From assembly GCA_020860515.1 (NCBI GenBank), contig JAJBUG010000029.1, forward strand, positions 7,413 through 71,412: DNA of 64,000 nt, read 5' to 3'. The notes beneath the pieces were generated by a model that saw only the letters and a list, made by a program, of their open reading frames with translations, was not told where the DNA came from and ran no database searches. Positions 6,970 to 55,072 of the stretch are shown piece by piece (within the stretch, counting starts at the first letter, position 1; every line of letters starts with the position of its first letter). Source of the stretch: Bacteroidales bacterium (GTDB lineage: Bacteria > Bacteroidota > Bacteroidia > Bacteroidales > Muribaculaceae). A program made the translations under genes and the position numbers.

Positions 6970-8958
6970 ATGAGTTATCTTAAATTTGATAAGAACCTAC
7001 TCATCAATCTCGAGCAGAGCCTGCCAAAAGAGATGCTTCGCACCAACTTCGCAGGCGCCTACCATTGTACAACTCTGGTTGGCTGCAACACCCGCAAGCA
7101 GCATGGCTTGCTGGTGATTCCTATCCCCGAGATGGGCAACAAGCCTCATGTGCTGCTGTCGAGCCTTGATGAGACGGTGATTCAACACGGTGCCCCATTC
7201 AACCTTGGCATCCATCGCTACCAAGGCGGCGTTTACAGCCCCAATGGTCACAAGTACATCCGCGAGTTCGACTGTGAGAACGTGCCACGCATGACCTACC
7301 GCGTGGGCGGCGTCATCCTCACCAAGGAGAAAATCTTCATCTCGCAGGAAAACCGCATTCTGATTCGCTACACCCTGGTGGATGCCCACTCAGCTACCAC
7401 TCTGCAGTTCCGCCCATTCCTCGCATTCCGCGAGAGCAACTCGCTGTGCATCGCCAACGACGCCATCAATCGCGAAATAATCCCGGTGGAGAATGGTATC
7501 GGCACATGCCTCTACCACGGCTACCCCACCCTCTACATGCAATTCTCGCGCAAAGTGGAGTGGGTTGACAATCCCAACTGGTACAAGAATGTAGAATACA
7601 TCAAGGATATGGAGCGCGGCGTGCCCTACACCGAGGACCTGTGGGTGCCCGGATATTTCCAACTGCCAATCAAGAAGGGCGAAAGCATCATCTTCTCGGC
7701 TGGCGTAGAGCCTGTATCGCCCCGCTCGCTCACCAAGATGTATGAGAAGGAAATAATATCGCGCACTCCGCGTTCGAGCTTCTTCAATTGCATGAAGAAT
7801 GCTGCCAAGCAGTTCTATATCACCGATAAGGAGGGCCACTTCATCATCAGCGGCTTCCCCTGGGGCACTATCCTGGCACGCAACACCATGATGGCCCTTC
7901 CGGGCCTGACCCTCGCTATTGACCACCGCAAGGACTTCGAGGAAATCATGGCCACTGCAAGCGAAGCCTTGAAAAATTTCATGGAGAAGGGCGAGCTCAG
8001 CGACCGCATCCACGGCATCGACCTGCCCGACATACCCCTGTGGTGCGTATGGGCTCTGCAGCAATATGCCAAGAATGCTGGCGACGAAGAGGCTCGCAAG
8101 CGCTATATGGGCCTCATCGCTGAGATTCTCAATTATGTGCTCGATGGGGGCCATCCCAATCTGCGCGTAGATGAGGAGAACGGCCTGCTCACAACCCTGG
8201 GCACCACCAGCCCGGTATCGTGGATGAACTCGCAGCTCAACGGCAAGCCGGTGATTCCGCGCACTGGATATTTGGTAGAGTTCAACGCCCTGTGGTACAA
8301 TGCTCTCAAGTTCGCCGCTGCCCTGGCTGCTCCGCTGCCTGAGCTGGAGGAGAATGTGAAGCGTTGGGAAGAAGCCGCCGAGAAGATGAAGCAGCCATTC
8401 GTGGATGTGTTCCTCAATGATTACGGCTATCTCTACGACTATGTAAGCAACGGCTATGCCGATCCGCAGGTTCGCCCCAATATGGCAGTTGCCATCGGCC
8501 TCGACTATTCGCCGCTCGACCGCCGTCAGCGCAAGGGCGTGCTCGATATCGTGACCCGCGAACTTCTCACCCCCAAGGGTCTGCGCACCCTGTCGCCTAA
8601 GAGCTATGGCTATCGTCCGTTCTACCTCGGCAGTCCCGAGGAGCGCGAACTTGCCCTGCACCAGGGCCCGGCTCGTCCTTGGCTGTTCGGATTCTATGCC
8701 GACGCCTATATCCGCGTGTTCGGCATGAGCGGCATCAGCTACATCGACCGCATGCTTATTGGCTTTGAGGAGGAAATGACCCAAGGCTGCATCGGCAGTT
8801 TGAGCCAGCTCTACGATGCCAACCCGCCTTACACTGGCCGAGGCGCTGTGTCGCACGCCACCAACGTGGCCGAGGTGCTTCGCGCTCTGCGCACCGTAAA
8901 GCGCCTGACCAAGGACCAGGAGAAGAAAGAAGAAGAAGAAAAGAAAGCCACAATCTAA
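6970..8958 (+). CDS. Glycogen debranching enzyme (amylo-alpha-1,6-glucosidase, GDE_N + GDE_C, GH133-like)
   Basis: EMLRTN..GAYHCTTLVGCNTRKQHGLL, VEFNALWYNAL, VRPNM..AI, LLTPKGLRTLSP. Confidence 0.9.
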   Translation: MSYLKFDKNLLINLEQSLPKEMLRTNFAGAYHCTTLVGCNTRKQHGLLVIPIPEMGNKPHVLLSSLDETVIQHGAPFNLGIHRYQGGVYSPNGHKYIREFDCENVPRMTYRVGGVILTKEKIFISQENRILIRYTLVDAHSATTLQFRPFLAFRESNSLCIANDAINREIIPVENGIGTCLYHGYPTLYMQFSRKVEWVDNPNWYKNVEYIKDMERGVPYTEDLWVPGYFQLPIKKGESIIFSAGVEPVSPRSLTKMYEKEIISRTPRSSFFNCMKNAAKQFYITDKEGHFIISGFPWGTILARNTMMALPGLTLAIDHRKDFEEIMATASEALKNFMEKGELSDRIHGIDLPDIPLWCVWALQQYAKNAGDEEARKRYMGLIAEILNYVLDGGHPNLRVDEENGLLTTLGTTSPVSWMNSQLNGKPVIPRTGYLVEFNALWYNALKFAAALAAPLPELEENVKRWEEAAEKMKQPFVDVFLNDYGYLYDYVSNGYADPQVRPNMAVAIGLDYSPLDRRQRKGVLDIVTRELLTPKGLRTLSPKSYGYRPFYLGSPEERELALHQGPARPWLFGFYADAYIRVFGMSGISYIDRMLIGFEEEMTQGCIGSLSQLYDANPPYTGRGAVSHATNVAEVLRALRTVKRLTKDQEKKEEEEKKATI

Positions 8959-41250: not shown

Positions 41251-41443
41251 TTCGTTTTTCGTTTTACGTTTTTCGTTTTAAGTTTTAAGTTTTAAGTTTT
41301 AAGAAATACTTTCGTAGATTATCGTTCACTCGTAGATTATCGTCTCTCGTATCTCTCGTTCACTCGTATCTCTCGTCTATCGTATCTCTCGTCTCTCGTA
41401 TCTCTCGTCTCTAATATCTCTCGTCTATTCGTTGATTCTCGTT
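41251..41443. repeat. Composite repeat arm: heptamer array + GAAATACTTTCG core + CTCGT-type array
   Basis: (C/A)GTTTT(A/T) heptamers, then TTAAGAAATACTTTCGT (41299-41315), multiple TCTCGT/CGTAGATT units, and TTCGTTGATTCTCGTT (41428-41443). Confidence 0.9.
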
Positions 41444-46321: not shown

Positions 46322-48862
46322 TTAAAGCTTGAACACTCGGATACCAGCCCTACCGTAAGCTACAACCAGATACTTATTGCCATTGTCGGCAAGTGGCTGC
46401 ACATAGTTGGCCGATGCGGATTCATTGTTCATAAAGTAACGCACAGGAACAAGAGCACTCTTGGTGAGTTCCCATACACCAGCGCCACCGTTGGCCACAT
46501 ACACATAATCACCGTCGATGCAAAGGCCGTTGGCTGCAGAACCGCGATAACGATTTGGATCTGGCGTCTTAGCGGCGGTGTCTTTCTTGAGCAAATCATA
46601 ATTGGCATCCATCCAATCGGGAATGTTAATGCGAGCCACCTCCGCACCGCTGGTGCTATACTTGGCTACGCCATTCCACCCTTGGCATGAGTAGAGATAG
46701 CCCTCGCTGTCGAAGGCAATCACGTTCTTGCCATAGATTGGACCGAAAGCAGGCACCTCGATTGTTGAAGTTGGCTCAAGGTCGGCTGAGAACGACCAAG
46801 GATTGCTCCAGATTTTGATTTCGGCTTTGAGCTGTGTGGCATTGTCGTTCCACCACATGTATTCTTCATCCTTGGGCACATCCACATATTCAATTGTTGC
46901 TATTGCTCCTGTGGGGCTCTTGGCAATGTGCTTTACAGAATTGTCAGTACTCTTAGCATCCTTCCAAGGTGAAAAAGATACCCAGCCTTGACCATCAACT
47001 TTAATGCTCTTCACTGAGAAATTGGCGCCATTGTCGGCATAATCCATAATTTGATAGCCACCGCGGCTTACAATCCACAGTTCGTCATTGCCGTCAGCAT
47101 CTTGACCAACAATAAGCGAGTTGCCGCTGCGGCCTGCCTCGATATCTGCGGTTACAGTGCCATCTTCTGCTACTGTGCTGTTATCCTTGCCAAGTTGGCG
47201 GGCAGTAAGGATGTCCATGCTGTTGCCAGTCCAATCCTCACCTGCGCTTTTGATATCAGCAATCTTGATTCGACCAATGAATCCACCCTTCTTGTCGTGG
47301 TCGCCAACAAGCAAGAGATAATCATTGTGGTAAATCAAGTGGTTGAAATCATAAGCATTGTCACGGTCGGTACCATGCTTTGTGATATCATCTTTCTCTT
47401 TGCCCGATACTGTCTGATACTCATCATCAGGATCAGAGTAAGCAAGCCATGCAGGCGTTTCCATCCAAGCATCCAGGGTTACCTTGTCGGTGCTGCCATC
47501 AACAATTATTTTCTCCACGCAGCCCCACACGTTGCCACCGCGAAGATGCCACGACACATAAGCCTCATTGCCATTCACTGCGATGCAGGTGGCCGAAATT
47601 GGATGGGTATGGGTAGGATCAATATCGGCAATATTCACAAATTCCGGGAACGGAGTCACCGAGGGAGTTCCATAAGCCGAACCGCAACCGCTGCTGGGCA
47701 CATAGTATTCCTTGGCCTCGTCAATAATCACATTCTCAGGAGTAGTAGCAGTCCCTCCACCACTTTCATGAGCAATAGTGCCATAGAGAATTACATAGCT
47801 GTCACCGAACTGCTGTGCAAAAGCCTCCTTTGTGTTAAGGGTAATGGTTGACTTCTTGCCATCAGCTGTCTCAGCCTGGATTACAGCATATTCCGAGCTC
47901 TCATGATCCTCAATTTGGATTACATTGACTTGCGAACTGCGGGGCTGCATAGTCATTCCATTGTATGCCCGAACAATGGCGCCGTTAGCCATGGTGAGAT
48001 TGCCACTTCCATTGAAATCAATAGCGTTGCACGCGCCACCCCATTCAGTAAACAATGTGTTGGAATCGACCTTCAGCGTTCCTGACAAATCAAAACACGC
48101 AATAGCTACCGAAGCGTTAGCATTGACAGTCATGCTCGCACCCTTGAATTTCTGGGCGAAAATCACTCCAGCGGAATCCCCGTTCTTTTGTGGGATTATA
48201 TCAACTGTAGCCTCGATTTCATCTGATACGATAAGGCCTTTAGGGCTATTTTTAGTGATCAAGATTGGCTTAGATGAGAAATTGAAAGCGTTGCCAGCGA
48301 AATCTCCGTTGATTTCCAATTGACCTTGACCAACGATAATGAAAGTTACCAGGTTTGAACCACATTCTGTAACTGTCAGTTTGCCTGAGGTCACATATAC
48401 CACTCTTTTCTTGTCCGCAGCATCCACTCGCGAAGTCAGATTTGCGGTAGAGACAAAGTTTGTCTCCCCTTTTTCATCTGAGGTGTAATCTCCATTTCGA
48501 AAATCGAGAGATGTGAGAGTCACATACTGGTCATACGATTCCGGCAATGTAATTCCATCATACTCCTCAATCGCAGCTTTTAAAGCAGAATTGTTGGCCT
48601 TTAAGTATGTTTCCCAGGTCTTGTAGTCGGCAGCGGCTGCGCGGCTTGCGCTGCTGTAATTGGTCACATACTGGCCCAGGAGGTCAGGATCAGTGACGAT
48701 TGACATCGGCGAGGCCTCAATCTGAGTTTCCTCGGGTGCAGTAGAATCGCTGCCATTTGAGGGGCCCTTGATGTCATCGTCGGAGCATGATGCGGTGAGC
48801 CCCAGCACGGCAATCGCCATTGCCAGGATTAACCCCTTGTTGCAAAAATTTTGTTTCTTCAT
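46322..48862 (-). CDS. Large lipoprotein with C-terminal beta-propeller (LVIVD-like blades)
   Basis: Lipobox LTASC-SDDD. ISATCIAVNGNEAYVSWH, SAANGLCIDGDYVYVANGGAGV, YLVVAYGRAGIRVFKL. Confidence 0.7.
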   Translation of the reverse strand: MKKQNFCNKGLILAMAIAVLGLTASCSDDDIKGPSNGSDSTAPEETQIEASPMSIVTDPDLLGQYVTNYSSASRAAAADYKTWETYLKANNSALKAAIEEYDGITLPESYDQYVTLTSLDFRNGDYTSDEKGETNFVSTANLTSRVDAADKKRVVYVTSGKLTVTECGSNLVTFIIVGQGQLEINGDFAGNAFNFSSKPILITKNSPKGLIVSDEIEATVDIIPQKNGDSAGVIFAQKFKGASMTVNANASVAIACFDLSGTLKVDSNTLFTEWGGACNAIDFNGSGNLTMANGAIVRAYNGMTMQPRSSQVNVIQIEDHESSEYAVIQAETADGKKSTITLNTKEAFAQQFGDSYVILYGTIAHESGGGTATTPENVIIDEAKEYYVPSSGCGSAYGTPSVTPFPEFVNIADIDPTHTHPISATCIAVNGNEAYVSWHLRGGNVWGCVEKIIVDGSTDKVTLDAWMETPAWLAYSDPDDEYQTVSGKEKDDITKHGTDRDNAYDFNHLIYHNDYLLLVGDHDKKGGFIGRIKIADIKSAGEDWTGNSMDILTARQLGKDNSTVAEDGTVTADIEAGRSGNSLIVGQDADGNDELWIVSRGGYQIMDYADNGANFSVKSIKVDGQGWVSFSPWKDAKSTDNSVKHIAKSPTGAIATIEYVDVPKDEEYMWWNDNATQLKAEIKIWSNPWSFSADLEPTSTIEVPAFGPIYGKNVIAFDSEGYLYSCQGWNGVAKYSTSGAEVARINIPDWMDANYDLLKKDTAAKTPDPNRYRGSAANGLCIDGDYVYVANGGAGVWELTKSALVPVRYFMNNESASANYVQPLADNGNKYLVVAYGRAGIRVFKL

Positions 48863-48871
48863 AATCTGTTA

Positions 48872-48937
48872 ATTTTAACTTATCATTTTGTACCTATTAA
48901 TTCTTAATTCGTATTTTGTACTTCGTATTTTGTATTT
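48872..48937. repeat. Degenerate 7-bp-period tract between GT2 and the lipoprotein gene
   Basis: On minus: AAAATAC GAAGTAC AAAATAC GAATTAA GAATTAA TAGGTAC AAAATGA TAAGTTA, ending shortly before the ATG. Confidence 0.6.
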
Positions 48938-50257
48938 TTACAGTCCTTCTATCTGGGCCACTTCGCTGGTCTTGCGGGGATTCCACTTGTCCTTGTAGCT
49001 CGTACGCAACAGCAATTCTTGGGTGTGGCCCACAAGGCGCGCGATGCGCAGGAAATAACCCGTGTAGAAGGTATGGAACAGAAGGTACGCCCCAAGATGA
49101 CGCTCCTGGCGCGGACGCTCAGTGATGCACTGCATACAGAAGAACGACATCATTGCAAATGCCAATCTTATGATCCATGCCACCACGAAAATCTCAAACA
49201 CCCGGTCGGTGTTTGCCATGAACAAATCTATGATATACCAAATCCAAATGTAATTGAACACCAGGTCGTAGGCGATATTTTCAAGGTTAGAAATGGCGTT
49301 AAGGAAGTTAAAGTTGCGATCGCTCCACAATATGTCGCGATGCTTGCGAATGCGGAAACGCACCAAGCTTTTGCTCCAACGCTTGCGCTGTTTGTATAGA
49401 GCATACCACTTTTCAGGTACATTGGTCATGCAGATGGCATCGTAGGCAAACTTCACCTTGTAACCAGCCTTGCGCAGCTTCTGTGTAATGTCGCCGTCGA
49501 GGCCCGGGCCAATGTCCCAATATCCCACATCTCTAAGGGCTTGAGCATCGAAAGCACCGAATGCACCCGAAATGATATGGTAAATGCCAAGCAGGTCGGT
49601 CCCCATGCGACCAATCTGAATGGTCTTGCAGTATTCCAAGGCTTGCATGGCTGTGCACATGTTGCGGTCTTGATTGCGCACCTTCACGCAGCCACCAACT
49701 CCTTTTACCTTTGGGTCGATATAGAATGGCAGCAATATCTTTTCGATAGCATCACGGTCGAGACTCGAATCCGCATCGAGGTGCACTATGTATTTGCCCG
49801 AAGCATGGTAAGCGCCGTAATTGGCAGCAGATGCCTTGCCTCCACGCTCTACCAAGCGGAAATATTTTGTAATATAGCCATGGTTAACCAAGTCTTTGCA
49901 AATCAATGGAGTGGCATCGTCGCTGCCATCATCCACCACTATGATTTCAAAATTGTGGTAGGTTTGTTCGCGCAGGCTCTTCACCAGTTGGTATATGTTT
50001 AGGCCTTCGTTTTTGCCAGGGACAAGGATGGTAATCAATGGTTTTTCAGCAAAAAGTTGCCGGCGTGCCAAAGCTGCACGTTCGCCACGCTTTCGCCATG
50101 TAAGGCCCTGACGAAGGAGCACAATCAGGTCAAGCACACAATATCTTGGAAACTCGATGAAAATCAAGAACCAAAAAGTAGTGCTCAGATAGTGCCACGA
50201 CAGATTAGCGGTGAAGCACGCCACCACCCCGTCGATAAATGCAAATACATAATCCAT
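48938..50257 (-). CDS. Processive membrane GT2 polysaccharide synthase (PgaC/IcaA/hyaluronan-synthase-like)
   Basis: N-terminal TM, VVDDGSDD, HLDADS, ISGAFGAF, GLDGDIT, QRKRW (QxxRW), C-terminal TM helices. Confidence 0.9.
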   Translation of the reverse strand: MDYVFAFIDGVVACFTANLSWHYLSTTFWFLIFIEFPRYCVLDLIVLLRQGLTWRKRGERAALARRQLFAEKPLITILVPGKNEGLNIYQLVKSLREQTYHNFEIIVVDDGSDDATPLICKDLVNHGYITKYFRLVERGGKASAANYGAYHASGKYIVHLDADSSLDRDAIEKILLPFYIDPKVKGVGGCVKVRNQDRNMCTAMQALEYCKTIQIGRMGTDLLGIYHIISGAFGAFDAQALRDVGYWDIGPGLDGDITQKLRKAGYKVKFAYDAICMTNVPEKWYALYKQRKRWSKSLVRFRIRKHRDILWSDRNFNFLNAISNLENIAYDLVFNYIWIWYIIDLFMANTDRVFEIFVVAWIIRLAFAMMSFFCMQCITERPRQERHLGAYLLFHTFYTGYFLRIARLVGHTQELLLRTSYKDKWNPRKTSEVAQIEGL

Positions 50258-50262
50258 ATTTC

Positions 50263-50296
50263 GTTTTACGTTTTAAGTTTTACGTTTTAAGAAATA
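50263..50296 (-). repeat. Heptamer arm C, flanking the four-helix-bundle gene
   Basis: On plus: GTTTTAC GTTTTAA GTTTTAC GTTTTAA GAAATA. Confidence 0.9.
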
Positions 50297-50312
50297 GTAT
50301 TCTTAACTGGGG

Positions 50313-50693
50313 TTATCTACTTTTTGGTTTATTACCAAATTCTATACTCTTTCTAAGATTATATATCATTCGTGAAATACCATCGATTAATTCATTGACA
50401 TATTTTAAATGTTCTTTTTCTATGTAGCCAAAAGAATATGCTAATTCTGTTTGAGTACTCAATTCCCAAGCCGAACCATTTGCTACCCTTAAAAAATAGT
50501 CTAATTCTTTATTGGAGTCCCGTCCATTACCTTCTGCAATATTAGAAGGAATAGAAACAGCCGATCTCTGCATTTGATTTGCAAGATTATATTTTTCTTC
50601 CTTGGGGAAATAACCTGTAAGTTGGTAGGTATATCTGGCTAAATCCATAGCTCTTTTCCATACTATCAAATCCCTATGATTTGAATAACCCAT
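50313..50693 (-). CDS. Four-helix-bundle protein (23S rRNA intervening-sequence protein / Avd-like family)
   Basis: HRDLIVWKRAMDL....Y.LT..FPKEEKY.L..QM.RSAVSIPSNIAEG.GR.S.KE...FL..A.GS..EL.TQ. Visibly more AT-rich than neighbours. Confidence 0.92.
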   Translation of the reverse strand: MGYSNHRDLIVWKRAMDLARYTYQLTGYFPKEEKYNLANQMQRSAVSIPSNIAEGNGRDSNKELDYFLRVANGSAWELSTQTELAYSFGYIEKEHLKYVNELIDGISRMIYNLRKSIEFGNKPKSR

Positions 50694-50723
50694 AAAAATT
50701 CTTCTTAAAGGAGTTATATAATG

Positions 50724-50757
50724 TATTTCTTAAAACGAAAAACGTAAAACGAAAAAC
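50724..50757 (+). repeat. Heptamer arm D, inverted partner of arm C
   Basis: TATTTC TTAAAAC GAAAAAC GTAAAAC GAAAAAC. Confidence 0.9.
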
Positions 50758-50765
50758 CCAATAAA

Positions 50766-52184
50766 TTAATCGCTTATGCGATTAATAAATGTTTCTACGT
50801 CTTCAGCGGGGTGTAGGACGCTGGTGCTTACCAGGTCATACTGGAAATCGGGGCAGCGGGTCACATAATCGTCAAATTCACTGCGAATCTCGAAATCCAT
50901 CTCAGCCTGCTTGACAGAAACCTCGCCAGGATTGACGCGGCAAAGGAAATAGTAATCGTTGCCGTGAAGGGCGCTCTTATAATTGTAAAGACGGCGCAGA
51001 CGACGCACAAGCCTCGGCACAGTCTCTCCAAATTTTGGAGCTAATAGATTGGGATCGTACACATGGTAGCGCATCACCACGATAAACTCCTTTTCAAGTT
51101 CCTCGGTGTTGCGCATAGCCTGACGCAGATAGTCTTCAAAATCACGCATCGAGGAATGGCCGAAGAATCCCACTTGGCTTATAGTCATGACCACATCATT
51201 GTTGGCAAAGGCGCGTATGCCGTCAGGCGTAAACTCGTATTCCTCCACATCGAGTGGAATAAGTTTGTCAGGCGTAGTGGGTCGGCGACATACAGCGCAC
51301 TGCACTCGCATATTTGAGTACATAAAGCTCTCACCACATTGGTTGCATGTATTCACAGCCGATGGCTTGTCATAGTCAACGCCAATATGAAGCAGTTTGT
51401 GCTTGCACTTGGGGCATTTCAATTCGCCATCCCATTCGTAAGCGCTTTCTGGAGCCACGTGGGCGCAGCGGAAATGGTGGATTACGTCCTCCTGCTTGAT
51501 GTCGCTGCTGCCGCATTTGGGGCAAGTTTCAAAGAAAAGCAAGTGACTGCGGTTGCAATTGGGACAAAGATGAATCTTGTCGATAAATCTTTTCTTGCGA
51601 ATATATCCCATCTCAAGCAACTGCTGATGGAAATATTCACGCTCCTTGAATTGCAAGCGCTCGTGCTCCTGATTCCAAAGTGTGTTGAAATAAAGAGCCA
51701 TATACCCCGAATTAAGCCCGGGGGTTGGTTGAGATGAAAAAGTGTACTGGCCTCGGCTGATGGCATAACGGCATAGGCGATACACTTCCTCGGCATGTGT
51801 GACCACCGGGTCGGTACCGAGGAAGAAATTGCAACGCATCATATTGGCGTAGATTTCCTCGATAGTCTGAGCCACCAATGCATCCTGAGGGTCGCTGCCG
51901 TAGCCATCAACCAGAATATCGGTAGTATAGCCAATCCAGCTCTTGAGACGGCGCGTCACAAAGCAGGGTTTGAAGCGGCACTTCTCGCTCTGCAGAGGGG
52001 ATGCCATGCGGATGGCATGCATCACACTATCGAGCACCGAGTCGATAGTATTGATGAAAATGGCATCAAAGTCCTCAAACTGCAAATCCTCCTCTTTCTC
52101 AACATCCACTACATCATTGATCACAAGGATGCGACGCTGATTCACGTTTGAGACAATTTCGTATGGTTTGCGTAATGCTGTCAT
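50766..52184 (-). CDS. TackOD1-like multi-zinc-ribbon protein with degenerate REC-like N-terminus and possible degenerate GGDEF-like C-terminus
   Basis: CPNC..SHL.F.E.CPKCGS.DI....VIHHFRCAHVAPES.Y.....LKCPKC.H.L.HIGVDYDKP....C.QC...CAVC. Confidence 0.7.
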   Translation of the reverse strand: MTALRKPYEIVSNVNQRRILVINDVVDVEKEEDLQFEDFDAIFINTIDSVLDSVMHAIRMASPLQSEKCRFKPCFVTRRLKSWIGYTTDILVDGYGSDPQDALVAQTIEEIYANMMRCNFFLGTDPVVTHAEEVYRLCRYAISRGQYTFSSQPTPGLNSGYMALYFNTLWNQEHERLQFKEREYFHQQLLEMGYIRKKRFIDKIHLCPNCNRSHLLFFETCPKCGSSDIKQEDVIHHFRCAHVAPESAYEWDGELKCPKCKHKLLHIGVDYDKPSAVNTCNQCGESFMYSNMRVQCAVCRRPTTPDKLIPLDVEEYEFTPDGIRAFANNDVVMTISQVGFFGHSSMRDFEDYLRQAMRNTEELEKEFIVVMRYHVYDPNLLAPKFGETVPRLVRRLRRLYNYKSALHGNDYYFLCRVNPGEVSVKQAEMDFEIRSEFDDYVTRCPDFQYDLVSTSVLHPAEDVETFINRISD

Positions 52185-52210
52185 TGCTGTTAATTTGAGT
52201 CAAGATGAGA

Positions 52211-53428
52211 TTAATTGGAAAATTGCGACCACACTGAGGCGGTATCTTTTGGCGCCTTGTATTTCCAGTCGCCTGGGAGGTCAATTTTGATGCCCTCGCC
52301 AGTGGTGTACCACAGATAGTTCTCGGCTGTAGGCTCGGCTCCCCATGTGTCAGTGTTGCGCACTCTCACTCTTACTGGCAGCCCCGATGCCATATTCCAG
52401 AATGGCACGGTCTGGCCAGGATCGATTTTCAGAATTGCAATAAGGGCAGTGTTCTTCTTACTGAAATAGCTGCGCAGATGCTCTGGAATAATATCTGCCC
52501 TCAGCCCAAGCACTGATACCGTGGCTTTAAAAGAAAAATCACCGTTAACCACCACCTCGGCTTTGCTGCAATTAGTAATGCGGTGCATCTTGTCGATGGG
52601 GATGTAAGCCACCACTTGCAGGTTGTTGGCCTCCAAATCAAGATGCTGGGTGGTCATGATTTCCTCCTTTTTAAAGAAAATCATTCGGTCAGGGGCCATC
52701 ACCTGTGTCACAATCGACGAATCGCTAACAAGGTGATAACTGATAAGCTGACGCAGGAAATTGCTGCGAGTATCATCGTAGATTTGCTGGGCCATGTGGC
52801 CATTAAGGCCCCACGAACCGCTGCTCCCCTCGGCATAGGCTGGGGTGGTCTCATTTCTCATTCTCCATAGCGTGCCCAGTTCGCCCAACAATGCTTTCAG
52901 CTGGGTGCGTGCCACATTTAGCTCTCGCTCTAAGTCGAGCTTGTGAGAATTGCTACTGAGGCCGAAGCTAATGTTGTGGCTTTCCACTTCAATCTGCTTC
53001 TCCAGCTCGGCAATGCGGGTGCGGAGCACTGCCACTTGCTGAGCCGCTTTCTGGTACTTCAGCGTGAGGTCACGGTTGTGGGTCACCAGCGAAGGCTCGG
53101 TAGCAGGATTTGCATGGTCGAGCAGCAAGTCGATATTATAATACGAATAAAGTGTATCGCCTGGAGACACGATATCACCCTCCTTTACATACACGCTGTC
53201 GAGATAAATGTCAAAGGGTGTGCGCACCTTGTTGGCATCCACATGCACATACCCATCATATTCGGTATAGTACACATGGAAGCCAACATAAAGGCCCAGC
53301 GAAATCAGGATGGCAGCAATAATCAAGGCTGACACAAATTGCTGTCGGTTAAATTTCCGCTTTCGCTGCCTGAGAATTTCTTCTATATTGTCTTTCTCCC
53401 TTTGGGAGCGATATGTGAAATTATTCAT
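52211..53428 (-). CDS. HlyD/membrane-fusion-type periplasmic adaptor
   Basis: Single N-terminal TM, lipoyl-like V.EGD.V.PGD.L, coiled coil, beta-barrel (VVAYIP, G.PVRVRV). Confidence 0.75.
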   Translation of the reverse strand: MNNFTYRSQREKDNIEEILRQRKRKFNRQQFVSALIIAAILISLGLYVGFHVYYTEYDGYVHVDANKVRTPFDIYLDSVYVKEGDIVSPGDTLYSYYNIDLLLDHANPATEPSLVTHNRDLTLKYQKAAQQVAVLRTRIAELEKQIEVESHNISFGLSSNSHKLDLERELNVARTQLKALLGELGTLWRMRNETTPAYAEGSSGSWGLNGHMAQQIYDDTRSNFLRQLISYHLVSDSSIVTQVMAPDRMIFFKKEEIMTTQHLDLEANNLQVVAYIPIDKMHRITNCSKAEVVVNGDFSFKATVSVLGLRADIIPEHLRSYFSKKNTALIAILKIDPGQTVPFWNMASGLPVRVRVRNTDTWGAEPTAENYLWYTTGEGIKIDLPGDWKYKAPKDTASVWSQFSN

Positions 53429-53441
53429 ATTTGTTATGTTG

Positions 53442-53589
53442 GTTTTAAGTATTAAGTTTTAAGTATTAAGAAATACTTTAATATCATTAAATCTATATAA
53501 ATATACCTAAAAATCTATATAAATATACCTAAATTTATCTCACTAATCATTTTCTTAATACTTAATACTTAATACTTAATACTTAATAC
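53442..53589. repeat. Empty inverted heptamer-arm element between tolC-like and hlyD-like genes
   Basis: GTTTTAA GTATTAA GTTTTAA GTATTAA GAAATAC ... (AAATCTATATAAATATACCTA)2 ... TTTC (TTAATAC)5. Confidence 0.88.
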
Positions 53590-54982: not shown

Positions 54983-55072
54983 CAAAGTTACAAAAAATTG
55001 GCCAATTTTCCTATTAATTTTTATATTTTTATCACTTGATAGTTGAAAATTCATTGTTTTTTAGTAATTTTG
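54983..55072. promoter_or_regulatory. Divergent -7 promoter elements (polysaccharide operon / NlpC-P60 operon)
   Basis: TAACTTTG on minus (54983-54990); TAATTTTG on plus (55065-55072). Confidence 0.6.

Follow-up and report, generated by a model that had tools for sequence, protein, structure and literature searches.

The closest described relatives of the locus analysed here belong to two groups. The first are the intervening sequences (IVSs) of 23S rRNA, of which that of Coxiella burnetii has a 28-bp stem, GACAGAT heptamers and an S23p open reading frame (ORF), and is cut by RNase III at mid-stem (Warrier et al. 2016, PMC4990558). The second are intergenic arrays of tandem heptamers, reported as GGGNATC in Xanthomonas and Nostoc (Rehm et al. 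2015, PMC4692102), as TAACTGA in Beggiatoaceae, Cyanobacteria and Bacteroidetes (MacGregor 2015, PMC4679880), and as four-heptamer elements in Geobacter (PMC2700814). For some 30 years, neither ORF-bearing rRNA IVSs nor bacterial heptamer repeats have had an explanation, and the two have been dealt with separately. Here we describe a cassette in which a gene for a four-helix-bundle (4HB) protein lies between complementary heptamer arrays at the junction of two operon genes, encoding a TackOD1-domain protein and a GT2 processive synthase-like protein. It is carried by a 64,000-nt stretch (hereafter the window, to which all coordinates refer) of contig JAJBUG010000029.1, assembly GCA_020860515.1, from a member of the Muribaculaceae whose genome (G000) comprises 4.07 Mb in 93 contigs, with 47.6% GC and a rated completeness of 99.99%.

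The cassette resembles the 23S rRNA IVSs of Coxiella and Leptospira in that an ORF of the same PF05635 'S23p' family is placed in the loop of a long terminal stem (40 bp here and 28 bp in Coxiella), with tandem heptamers in or adjoining the arm in both, in its foreign composition, and in that spread and loss plausibly proceed via recombination between conserved flanks. It differs from them in sitting at an mRNA operon junction instead of an rRNA helix (9, 25 or 45), in having arms that consist entirely of heptamer arrays of a genome-wide family, and in having a host that lacks RNase III, the enzyme that excises IVSs. Moreover, its ORF bears the mark of strong purifying selection, whereas that of Coxiella was judged to be decaying (PMC4990558). 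With the published heptamer arrays it shares 7-nt tandem units, a preference for about four copies, a location between co-directional genes, lineage specificity, a G-rich reading after stop codons with the complement just before starts, and convergent pairs that can form stem-loops. However, in those studies no protein family is named and no gene lies inside the hairpins (PMC4692102, PMC4679880, PMC2700814), and the GTTTTNN unit found here is distinct and does not form G-quadruplexes.

Two further systems share traits with the locus. In Haemophilus influenzae, transcribed heptamers in the hmw 5' untranslated region make up one arm of a hairpin directly upstream of the gene and set its expression (PMC12721329); as in our case, a heptamer arm of a long hairpin is transcribed just before a gene, but the hmw hairpin acts via RNase III, has a non-repeat partner arm, contains no ORF, and is a single phase-variable locus. 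Repetitive extragenic palindromes (REP/REPIN-RAYT systems) and MITEs (miniature inverted-repeat transposable elements) are likewise dispersed, lineage-specific palindromic repeats at operon junctions, with many gene-less and few gene-bearing copies. They differ in that our element has neither a nuclease or transposase fold nor a target-site duplication, and in that its arms are tandem arrays of variable number and not a fixed palindrome; no movement was observed. In the literature searched, we could not find any link between PF05635/TIGR02436 genes and inverted heptamer arrays outside rRNA.

The architecture has therefore been published so far in pieces, as the S23p IVS of Coxiella (PMC4990558) and as polar arrays without a protein (PMC4692102, PMC4679880). 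To these the present locus adds filled, empty and gene-less alleles of one junction, evidence that a cassette was passed on vertically for a long time while its ORF and its arms were both under selection, exchange by homologous recombination and not by transposition, and a host genus without RNase III. We consider it reasonably probable that the locus belongs, as a copy with a gene, to a lineage-specific family of hairpins built from polar heptamer arrays, and that, IVS-like in design, it has a 4HB gene co-transcribed with the operon and a stem that buries the start of GT2 in the mRNA.

The 4HB cassette and its predicted fold

The cassette belongs to an operon-like row on the minus strand, a polysaccharide-synthase operon that holds all genes of interest (Table 1). 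Its arms are 40 nt long, 88% complementary and 427 nt apart, and extend a 34-bp core (50263-50296 and 50724-50757) with exactly three mismatches (U.U, C.U, U.U), which the earlier note on this DNA had described correctly. In the transcript the 5' arm reads UAUUGG-(GUUUUUC GUUUUAC GUUUUUC GUUUUAA)-GAAAUA and the 3' arm UAUUUC-(UUAAAAC GUAAAAC UUAAAAC GUAAAAC)-GAAAUA, each being composed of four tandem 7-nt GTTTTNN units plus a GAAATA boundary (repeat families D5 and D7). The stop codon of TackOD1 precedes the 5' arm by 2 nt; at the other end, the core stops 5 nt before the AUG of GT2, while the extended 40-bp pairing ends on the A of that AUG.

When a 561-nt transcript was folded, the arms closed with a minimum free energy of -122.7 kcal/mol (z -3.6, none of 100 shuffles being as good), to be compared with -30.5 kcal/mol for the arm duplex by itself. 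The flank complementarity score of the locus is 25, a value reached or exceeded by 0.36% of 2523 control ORFs of the same genome. Positions -20 to -1 of GT2 have a mean probability of being unpaired of 0.26 in the predicted fold, which makes an occlusion of the initiation region, already suggested in the earlier note, thermodynamically plausible.

The cassette has 30% GC, against 49% in the host genes, and its ORF has 22% GC at third codon positions, against 57-59%, a clearly foreign composition that agrees with the earlier description of an AT-rich 126-aa gene in a GC-richer operon. A regex scan of the minus strand for the Bacteroidetes-type -7 box TAnnTTTG found a single instance upstream of the operon and none from there to GT2. 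It is therefore presumed that the transcript reaching GT2 also spans the cassette, including a 4HB gene that lies in sense and would lack a promoter of its own. Rfam gave no matches in 48000-53000 at E<=1, and PADLOC none for either the 4HB protein or TackOD1. Identical copies of the 4HB protein are encoded on 17 public contigs, and the six that were fetched all have the same context and identical arms, so the cassette is not an assembly artefact.

Table 1. Features of the operon-like row and of an array elsewhere in the window
Feature	Position	Strand	Basis or description
Sole TAnnTTTG (Bacteroidetes-type -7 box) upstream of the operon	54983-54990	-	regex scan
Outer-membrane-protein-like ORF, 450 aa	53569-54921	-	label from the earlier note; no Pfam/NCBIfam match
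Gene-less hairpin, same super-family, same operon	53442-53589		(GTTTTAA/GTATTAA)4-GAAATAC ... ATTTTC-(TTAATAC)5
Adaptor-like ORF	52211-53428	-	ORF list
TackOD1-domain protein, 472 aa, upstream host gene	50766-52184	-	PF18551 E 2.8e-46
5' arm (transcript sense)	50724-50763	-	inverted repeat and fold
Loop segment and 4HB leader, A/U-rich, no TAnnTTTG -7 box	50694-50723	-	sequence, regex scan
4HB gene, 126 aa	50313-50693	-	PF05635/TIGR02436
Loop segment, 16 nt, from 4HB stop codon to 3' arm	50297-50312	-	sequence
3' arm, last base being the A of the GT2 AUG	50257-50296	-	inverted repeat and fold
GT2 processive synthase-like protein, 439 aa, downstream host gene	48938-50257	-	profile matches
Solo array	41254-41302		(NNAAAAC)7 on the minus strand, with 4 nt between its end and the ATG (41249-41247) of a minus-strand gene

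The encoded protein matches PF05635 (E 1.2e-36, 125.5 bits, cut-off 33.8) and TIGR02436 'four helix bundle protein' (120.6 bits, cut-off 24). It is basic (pI 9.1) and single-domain, with a length usual for the family (about 110-130 aa), and in an alignment of 27 homologues the SIPSNIAEG motif is invariant at S47, I48, P49, S50, N51, A53, E54 and G55, and nearly so at I52. An AlphaFold2 monomer model made with these homologues (pLDDT 92.6) predicts helices at residues 10-26, 37-56, 61-87 and 93-118. With Foldseek, the model superposes on Xcc0516 (2gsc; TM score 0.86-0.96, identity 39%), on BT_0352 (2rld; TM score 0.79-0.90), and on Avd of diversity-generating retroelements (DGRs) (4dwl, 8ub7; TM score about 0.76, identity 9%), which bears out the family and the Avd-like fold proposed in the earlier note. 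As the PDB entries 2gsc, 2rld and Avd contain five chains each, the 4HB protein is by analogy probably pentameric.

The likeness to DGR Avd thus extends to the fold, the basic character and the five-chain structures of relatives. However, apart from the low identity, the protein stays below the cut-off of the Avd equivalog NF033474 (39.2 bits vs 80) and below that of PF22296 (26 bits vs 40), and neither a reverse transcriptase (RT) nor template and variable repeats (TR/VR), for which no aimed search was made, adjoin the 4HB gene, whose neighbours are TackOD1 and GT2. The sole RT-domain ORF of the genome encodes 543 aa elsewhere (C36:255-944, PF00078 E 1.3e-12) and has no 4HB gene adjacent, and the contig that carries it also holds three long GTTTTNN arrays (at 8922, 11999 and 13711).

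In the reading that we favour, hairpin elements occupy whole gene junctions, between one gene's stop codon and the next gene's start codon, and the cassette is, by architecture, the messenger-RNA counterpart of ORF-bearing 23S rRNA IVSs. Its 40-bp stem would loop the 4HB cistron out of the operon transcript and bury the last 20 nt ahead of the GT2 start codon as well as the A of that codon, and translation of GT2 would depend on something that opens the stem. The obvious candidate for such an opener would be the cassette's own basic, probably pentameric 4HB protein, bound to one array. Presence or absence among near-identical strains arises via homologous recombination of the flanking genes, and excision by RNase III has no part in the mechanism in this host, whose genus lacks the enzyme. 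If the stem does gate GT2, exopolysaccharide production in gut Bacteroidales would have a cis-regulatory insert of a new kind. Downstream of GT2, the operon continues with an ORF of 846 aa and then a nucleotide-sugar dehydrogenase.

Three states of the TackOD1-GT2 junction

Other states of the junction were found via TackOD1 homologues; a scan of genome contigs with TackOD1 as query gave only the contig of a sister species (G004). An empty allele, as anticipated in the earlier note, is present on two Logan contigs (L092 and L093), with a TackOD1 protein 97% identical and flanks 98.7% and 96.9% identical in nucleotides to the window. It has no spacer, the TackOD1 stop and the GT2 start overlapping as TGATG. 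Its GT2 begins four codons earlier (MEWIRDY... vs MDY...), so that the filled-allele protein, which starts at an ATG in the cassette-edge sequence GAAATATG, lacks the first four residues of the empty (L092:2814-4145) and sister-species proteins (MEWI/MFEFI-RDY). The cassette is shown to have replaced an ancestral overlap of stop and start (TGATG).

The difference between filled and empty alleles is not confined to the cassette. Identity is 98-100% over nt 1-1200 of TackOD1 and then falls to 0.88, 0.77, 0.67 and 0.63 over its last ~220 nt, while in GT2 it is 0.67-0.9 over the first ~240 nt before returning to 0.97-1.0. Such a profile is that of a homologous-recombination tract of about 460 bp plus the cassette, and not of a clean insertion. 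We could not find any convincing target-site duplication at the filled/empty boundary, where only GATTA occurs on both sides, nor any recombinase, and exact copies (six fetched of the 17 contigs) were found only at this junction.

The direction of the change is indicated by a more distant lineage (L102; TackOD1 97% identical in amino acids and about 86% in nucleotides), which carries a cassette in the corresponding position, its arms being of the same family. Its 4HB protein is 85% identical to that of the window, with a pN of 0.084 against a pS of 0.73, which points to strong purifying selection on the ORF. The arms and boundaries are identical at 54/55 positions and the non-coding loop segments at 27/50; the 5' arm by itself is identical at 34/35 nt, while the 4HB leader is only about half conserved. 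In the junction patch, the window allele has an identity of 0.82 to L102, which is the background level, whereas the empty allele, at 0.68-0.69, is the outlier; it follows that the recombination tract most likely removed the cassette. Most likely the cassette is therefore ancestral to the window and L102 lineages, and the empty allele results from import of a cassette-free tract. On the same evidence the cassette is shown to have been kept vertically across a lineage split of saturated synonymous divergence.

A third state occurs in the sister species, where TackOD1 and GT2 are 84% and 81% identical to those of the window. Here the junction is occupied by a gene-less hairpin, (GTTTTCA)4 and (CTGAAAA)4 around a 40-nt loop, beyond which a further array reaches right up to the GT2 ATG. 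This junction was pieced together from two contig ends with a 51-nt overlap containing one mismatch, and a third independent contig agrees with it (G004 loci L008:1-80, L085:1-136 and L101:2928-2960). No 4HB remnant was found in the gene-less loop, and no 4HB gene was detected in this metagenome-assembled genome (MAG), which is 88% complete. More distant homologues have a 4-nt overlap or spacers of 12-13 nt at the junction. The occurrence of three allele states in close relatives, upstream of a synthase whose output would be measurable, provides an unusually clean natural experiment.

Polar heptamer arrays in the host genome

The arms are not private to the 4HB cassette but are part of a genome-wide family of polar arrays and gene-less hairpins. 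The host genome contains 93 arrays of at least three GTTTTNN units, which we grouped as 17 inverted pairs and 52 solo arrays. All 17 pairs have the form 5'-(GTTTTNN)n-GAAATA ... TATTTC-(NNAAAAC)n-3', with a common inner boundary; their loops are non-coding and of 21-200 nt, a gene being enclosed only in the pair studied here. More widely, TRF detected 218 period-7 arrays in this genome, from at least ten unit families.

The arrays are strongly oriented with respect to genes. In the NNAAAAC reading, an ATG with an ORF of 100 aa or more follows within 60 nt in 39/94 arrays and within 3-15 nt in 28/94, whereas in the GTTTTNN reading this is the case within 60 nt for only 4/93. Stop codons precede the array in the GTTTTNN reading in 34 cases vs 13. 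The 5-nt spacing between the 3' arm and the GT2 AUG, correctly recorded in the earlier note, is thus a trait of the array family and not of this cassette.

The family is also lineage-specific. We counted 239 GTTTTNN matches in the host genome, and 513 in the sister species with its GTTTTCA/G unit. Of the other 35 genomes of the genus, G025 has three matches and the rest have none, and those of 24 other families have none either. The 513 GTTTTCR matches of the sister species lie in 2.6 Mb, which is twice the load of the host genome, and the shift of the unit from GTTTTAC to GTTTTCA between the two points to a concerted change of the whole repeat family. Many contigs of the host genome start or stop inside heptamer arrays (C7, C14, C24, C63, C68, C69 and others).

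Two further members lie within the window (Table 1). The gene-less hairpin of the same operon separates the 450-aa ORF from the adaptor-like gene, the stop codon of the former being inside an arm, and its loop contains a 21-bp direct repeat. The solo array belongs to a region (41254-41440) in which it is followed by unrelated short tandem repeats (CTCTCGT/ATCTCTCGT type) and then by an ECF-sigma-like gene.

In a different explanation, the arrays are selfish or structural elements at the DNA level, acting as hairpins or cruciforms in replication or recombination, with the RNA stem as a by-product and the 4HB gene as a passenger. The complementarity of the arms would then be upheld mechanically, by template switching or gene conversion. 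In line with this, gene-less hairpins far outnumber gene-bearing ones, hairpin polarity is identical on both strands, copy number and unit have drifted between sister species, and arrays break assemblies. However, the marked stop/start polarity and the 3-15-nt spacing to ATG codons point to a constraint at the level of expression, and within co-directional gene pairs the 4HB genes surveyed below are mostly in sense inside operons (14, vs 2 in antisense). Nor does the 4HB gene look like a decaying passenger, because its ORF is under strong purifying selection. We regard a purely DNA-level role as unlikely.

Several observations nonetheless weigh against the role that we favour for the stem in the GT2 messenger. 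When a ribosome footprint was masked at the TackOD1 stop codon, the repeats slid into another register and paired again, so that the GT2 start region did not open (0.27 unpaired). Simple translational coupling through the stem thus fails and was dropped as a mechanism, since a terminating TackOD1 ribosome does not free the GT2 start in folding. Across 49 loci, arm mismatches are G.U in 73 cases and A.C in 95; as G.U is not in excess, there is no signature of selection on the sense RNA over DNA or either strand, which again agrees with a DNA-level role. Conservation of the arms could also stem from gene conversion among copies or from template-switch repair of quasi-palindromes. Finally, the sister species has even more arrays of this family and yet no detected 4HB gene in its incomplete MAG.

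4HB genes and RNase III across Bacteroidales

The other two true 4HB genes of the host genome are also armed, with GTGATTT/AAATCAC and ATGACAA/TTTGTAA units, so that each of the three has a unit of its own. We extended the survey to 60 Bacteroidales relatives, 31 of which contain about 110 4HB copies; 72 loci were read, 67 of them with both flanks complete. A locus was called armed when the local alignment of its upstream against its downstream flank scored at least 14, a measure that replaced RNAduplex over 150-nt flanks, which was too noisy. Complementary flanks, which the earlier note had proposed to look for in homologues, were found in 40/67 loci (60%), the corresponding figures being 0.5% for mismatched upstream/downstream pairs and 1.0% for the 2523 control ORFs.

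The repeat unit differs at almost every locus. Arrays have a period of 7 in 78/120 cases and a modal copy number of 4, and G is richer than C in the 5' arm of 36/39 armed loci. Because the arms break assemblies, many of the copies found in relatives are about 100 nt away from the end of a contig; given also the arrays at contig ends in the host genome, short-read MAGs likely under-count such cassettes. One host junction, between genes of 264 aa and 455 aa (77-80% nucleotide identity), carries different cassettes in two species (L022:1372-1877 in G020 and L027:1418-1917 in G031), with 54% amino-acid identity between the 4HB proteins, different arm units and opposite orientations. Junctions can thus be colonised more than once, and this one suggests repeated colonisation or replacement at a single site. 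Taken with the census, the locus presents IVSs and heptamer repeats as two faces of one architecture, which also occurs in ordinary operons and whose protein selection maintains.

The pairing of protein and unit raises the possibility of a trans-acting reader, in which each 4HB protein would recognise its own heptamer word and the gene-bearing copy would be the master of the dispersed arrays. Such a protein might maintain or spread arrays in the manner of REP/RAYT systems, or regulate the roughly 39 genes with the word before their ATG, at least 39 start codons of the host genome having (NNAAAAC)n within 60 nt upstream. Arms and protein do diverge together: the arms of different loci match in 3/4 pairs at >=60% protein identity, in 21% of pairs at 50-60%, and in 4% below 40%. 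Moreover, the modal 4-5 units per arm fit a pentamer, and in three hosts the arm units are those of expanded lineage-specific families. In the host genome this is the case for GTTTTNN, with its 239 matches, and AAATTAC/AAATGAC, the arm units of the second 4HB locus (C9), are among the largest array families; TTTTGNN, the unit of the L042 arms, has 108 matches in G025, where it was seen as the reversed control pattern; and GTGACCA has 197 matches in G054 against almost none in 58 other genomes.

However, CAGTNGG arms, which related proteins from four families have in common, show no expansion in the genomes of their hosts, and the proposal that every cassette arm unit is a genome-wide family was accordingly rejected. 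The sister species has the largest GTTTTCR expansion, yet a 4HB gene was not detected in it. In the host genome, a 4HB partner is missing for at least one large array family (AAAGACT; also AATAATG). Moreover, the 4HB fold has no catalytic site and the protein no PADLOC match. As the expansion of arm units is not a general rule, we consider a cognate reader improbable. If it were correct, heptamer repeats would gain a cognate protein, and the reason for ORFs in IVSs would be explained.

A more specific form of this idea, which we hold just as tentatively, would make the 4HB protein a ring-shaped, TRAP-like reader of its own word, whose pentamer grips 4-5 units, opens or locks the hairpin, autoregulates its own synthesis and gates GT2. 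It would act on RNA or on single-stranded DNA and, in genomes through which the word has dispersed, would govern all genes with this word in their leader.

The earlier note had proposed a mobile, IVS-like cassette that inserts in operons and is cut from the mRNA at its stem by RNase III. The architecture does match that of the Coxiella IVS, which RNase III cuts in mid-stem (PMC4990558), the heptamer-repeat hairpin of the H. influenzae hmw 5' untranslated region is an RNase III target (PMC12721329), and both filled and empty alleles of the junction exist. However, we could not find any RNase III domain in the practically complete host genome (no matches to PF14622, PF00636 or TIGR02191), and a tblastn search of it with three Bacteroidales RNase III proteins gave a best E of 1.3. 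The enzyme is equally lacking from all genomes of the genus (0/37), whereas it is present in 22/24 genomes each taken from another Bacteroidales family, and it appears to have been lost from the whole genus.

Excision by RNase III is consequently not supported in this host. The element does not depend on the absence of the enzyme either, since armed cassettes also occur in families that have it, and it is thus separable from the sole processing mechanism attached to such elements so far. As to mobility, the recurrent armed layout and the empty alleles agree with an operon cassette, but transposition does not fit a presence/absence difference that carries a homologous-recombination tract, with no target duplication, no recombinase and exact copies at one junction only. 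The interpretation in the earlier note is therefore partly supported, while insertion followed by RNase III cutting seems very unlikely to us.

That an ordinary small gene fell by chance between two copies of a repeat abundant in the host genome is refuted by the flank census, in which 60% of the order's 4HB genes are armed against about 1% of controls, with units that differ by locus and with all three genes of the host genome included, and we give this idea practically no credence.

Beside its three true 4HB genes, the host genome contains weak PF05635-like stretches (E 1e-7 to 3e-5) within larger ORFs of 132-255 aa, at C57:4286-4423, C22:12382-12591 and C40:8940-9098 (L004-L006), which may be distant relatives of the 4HB domain.

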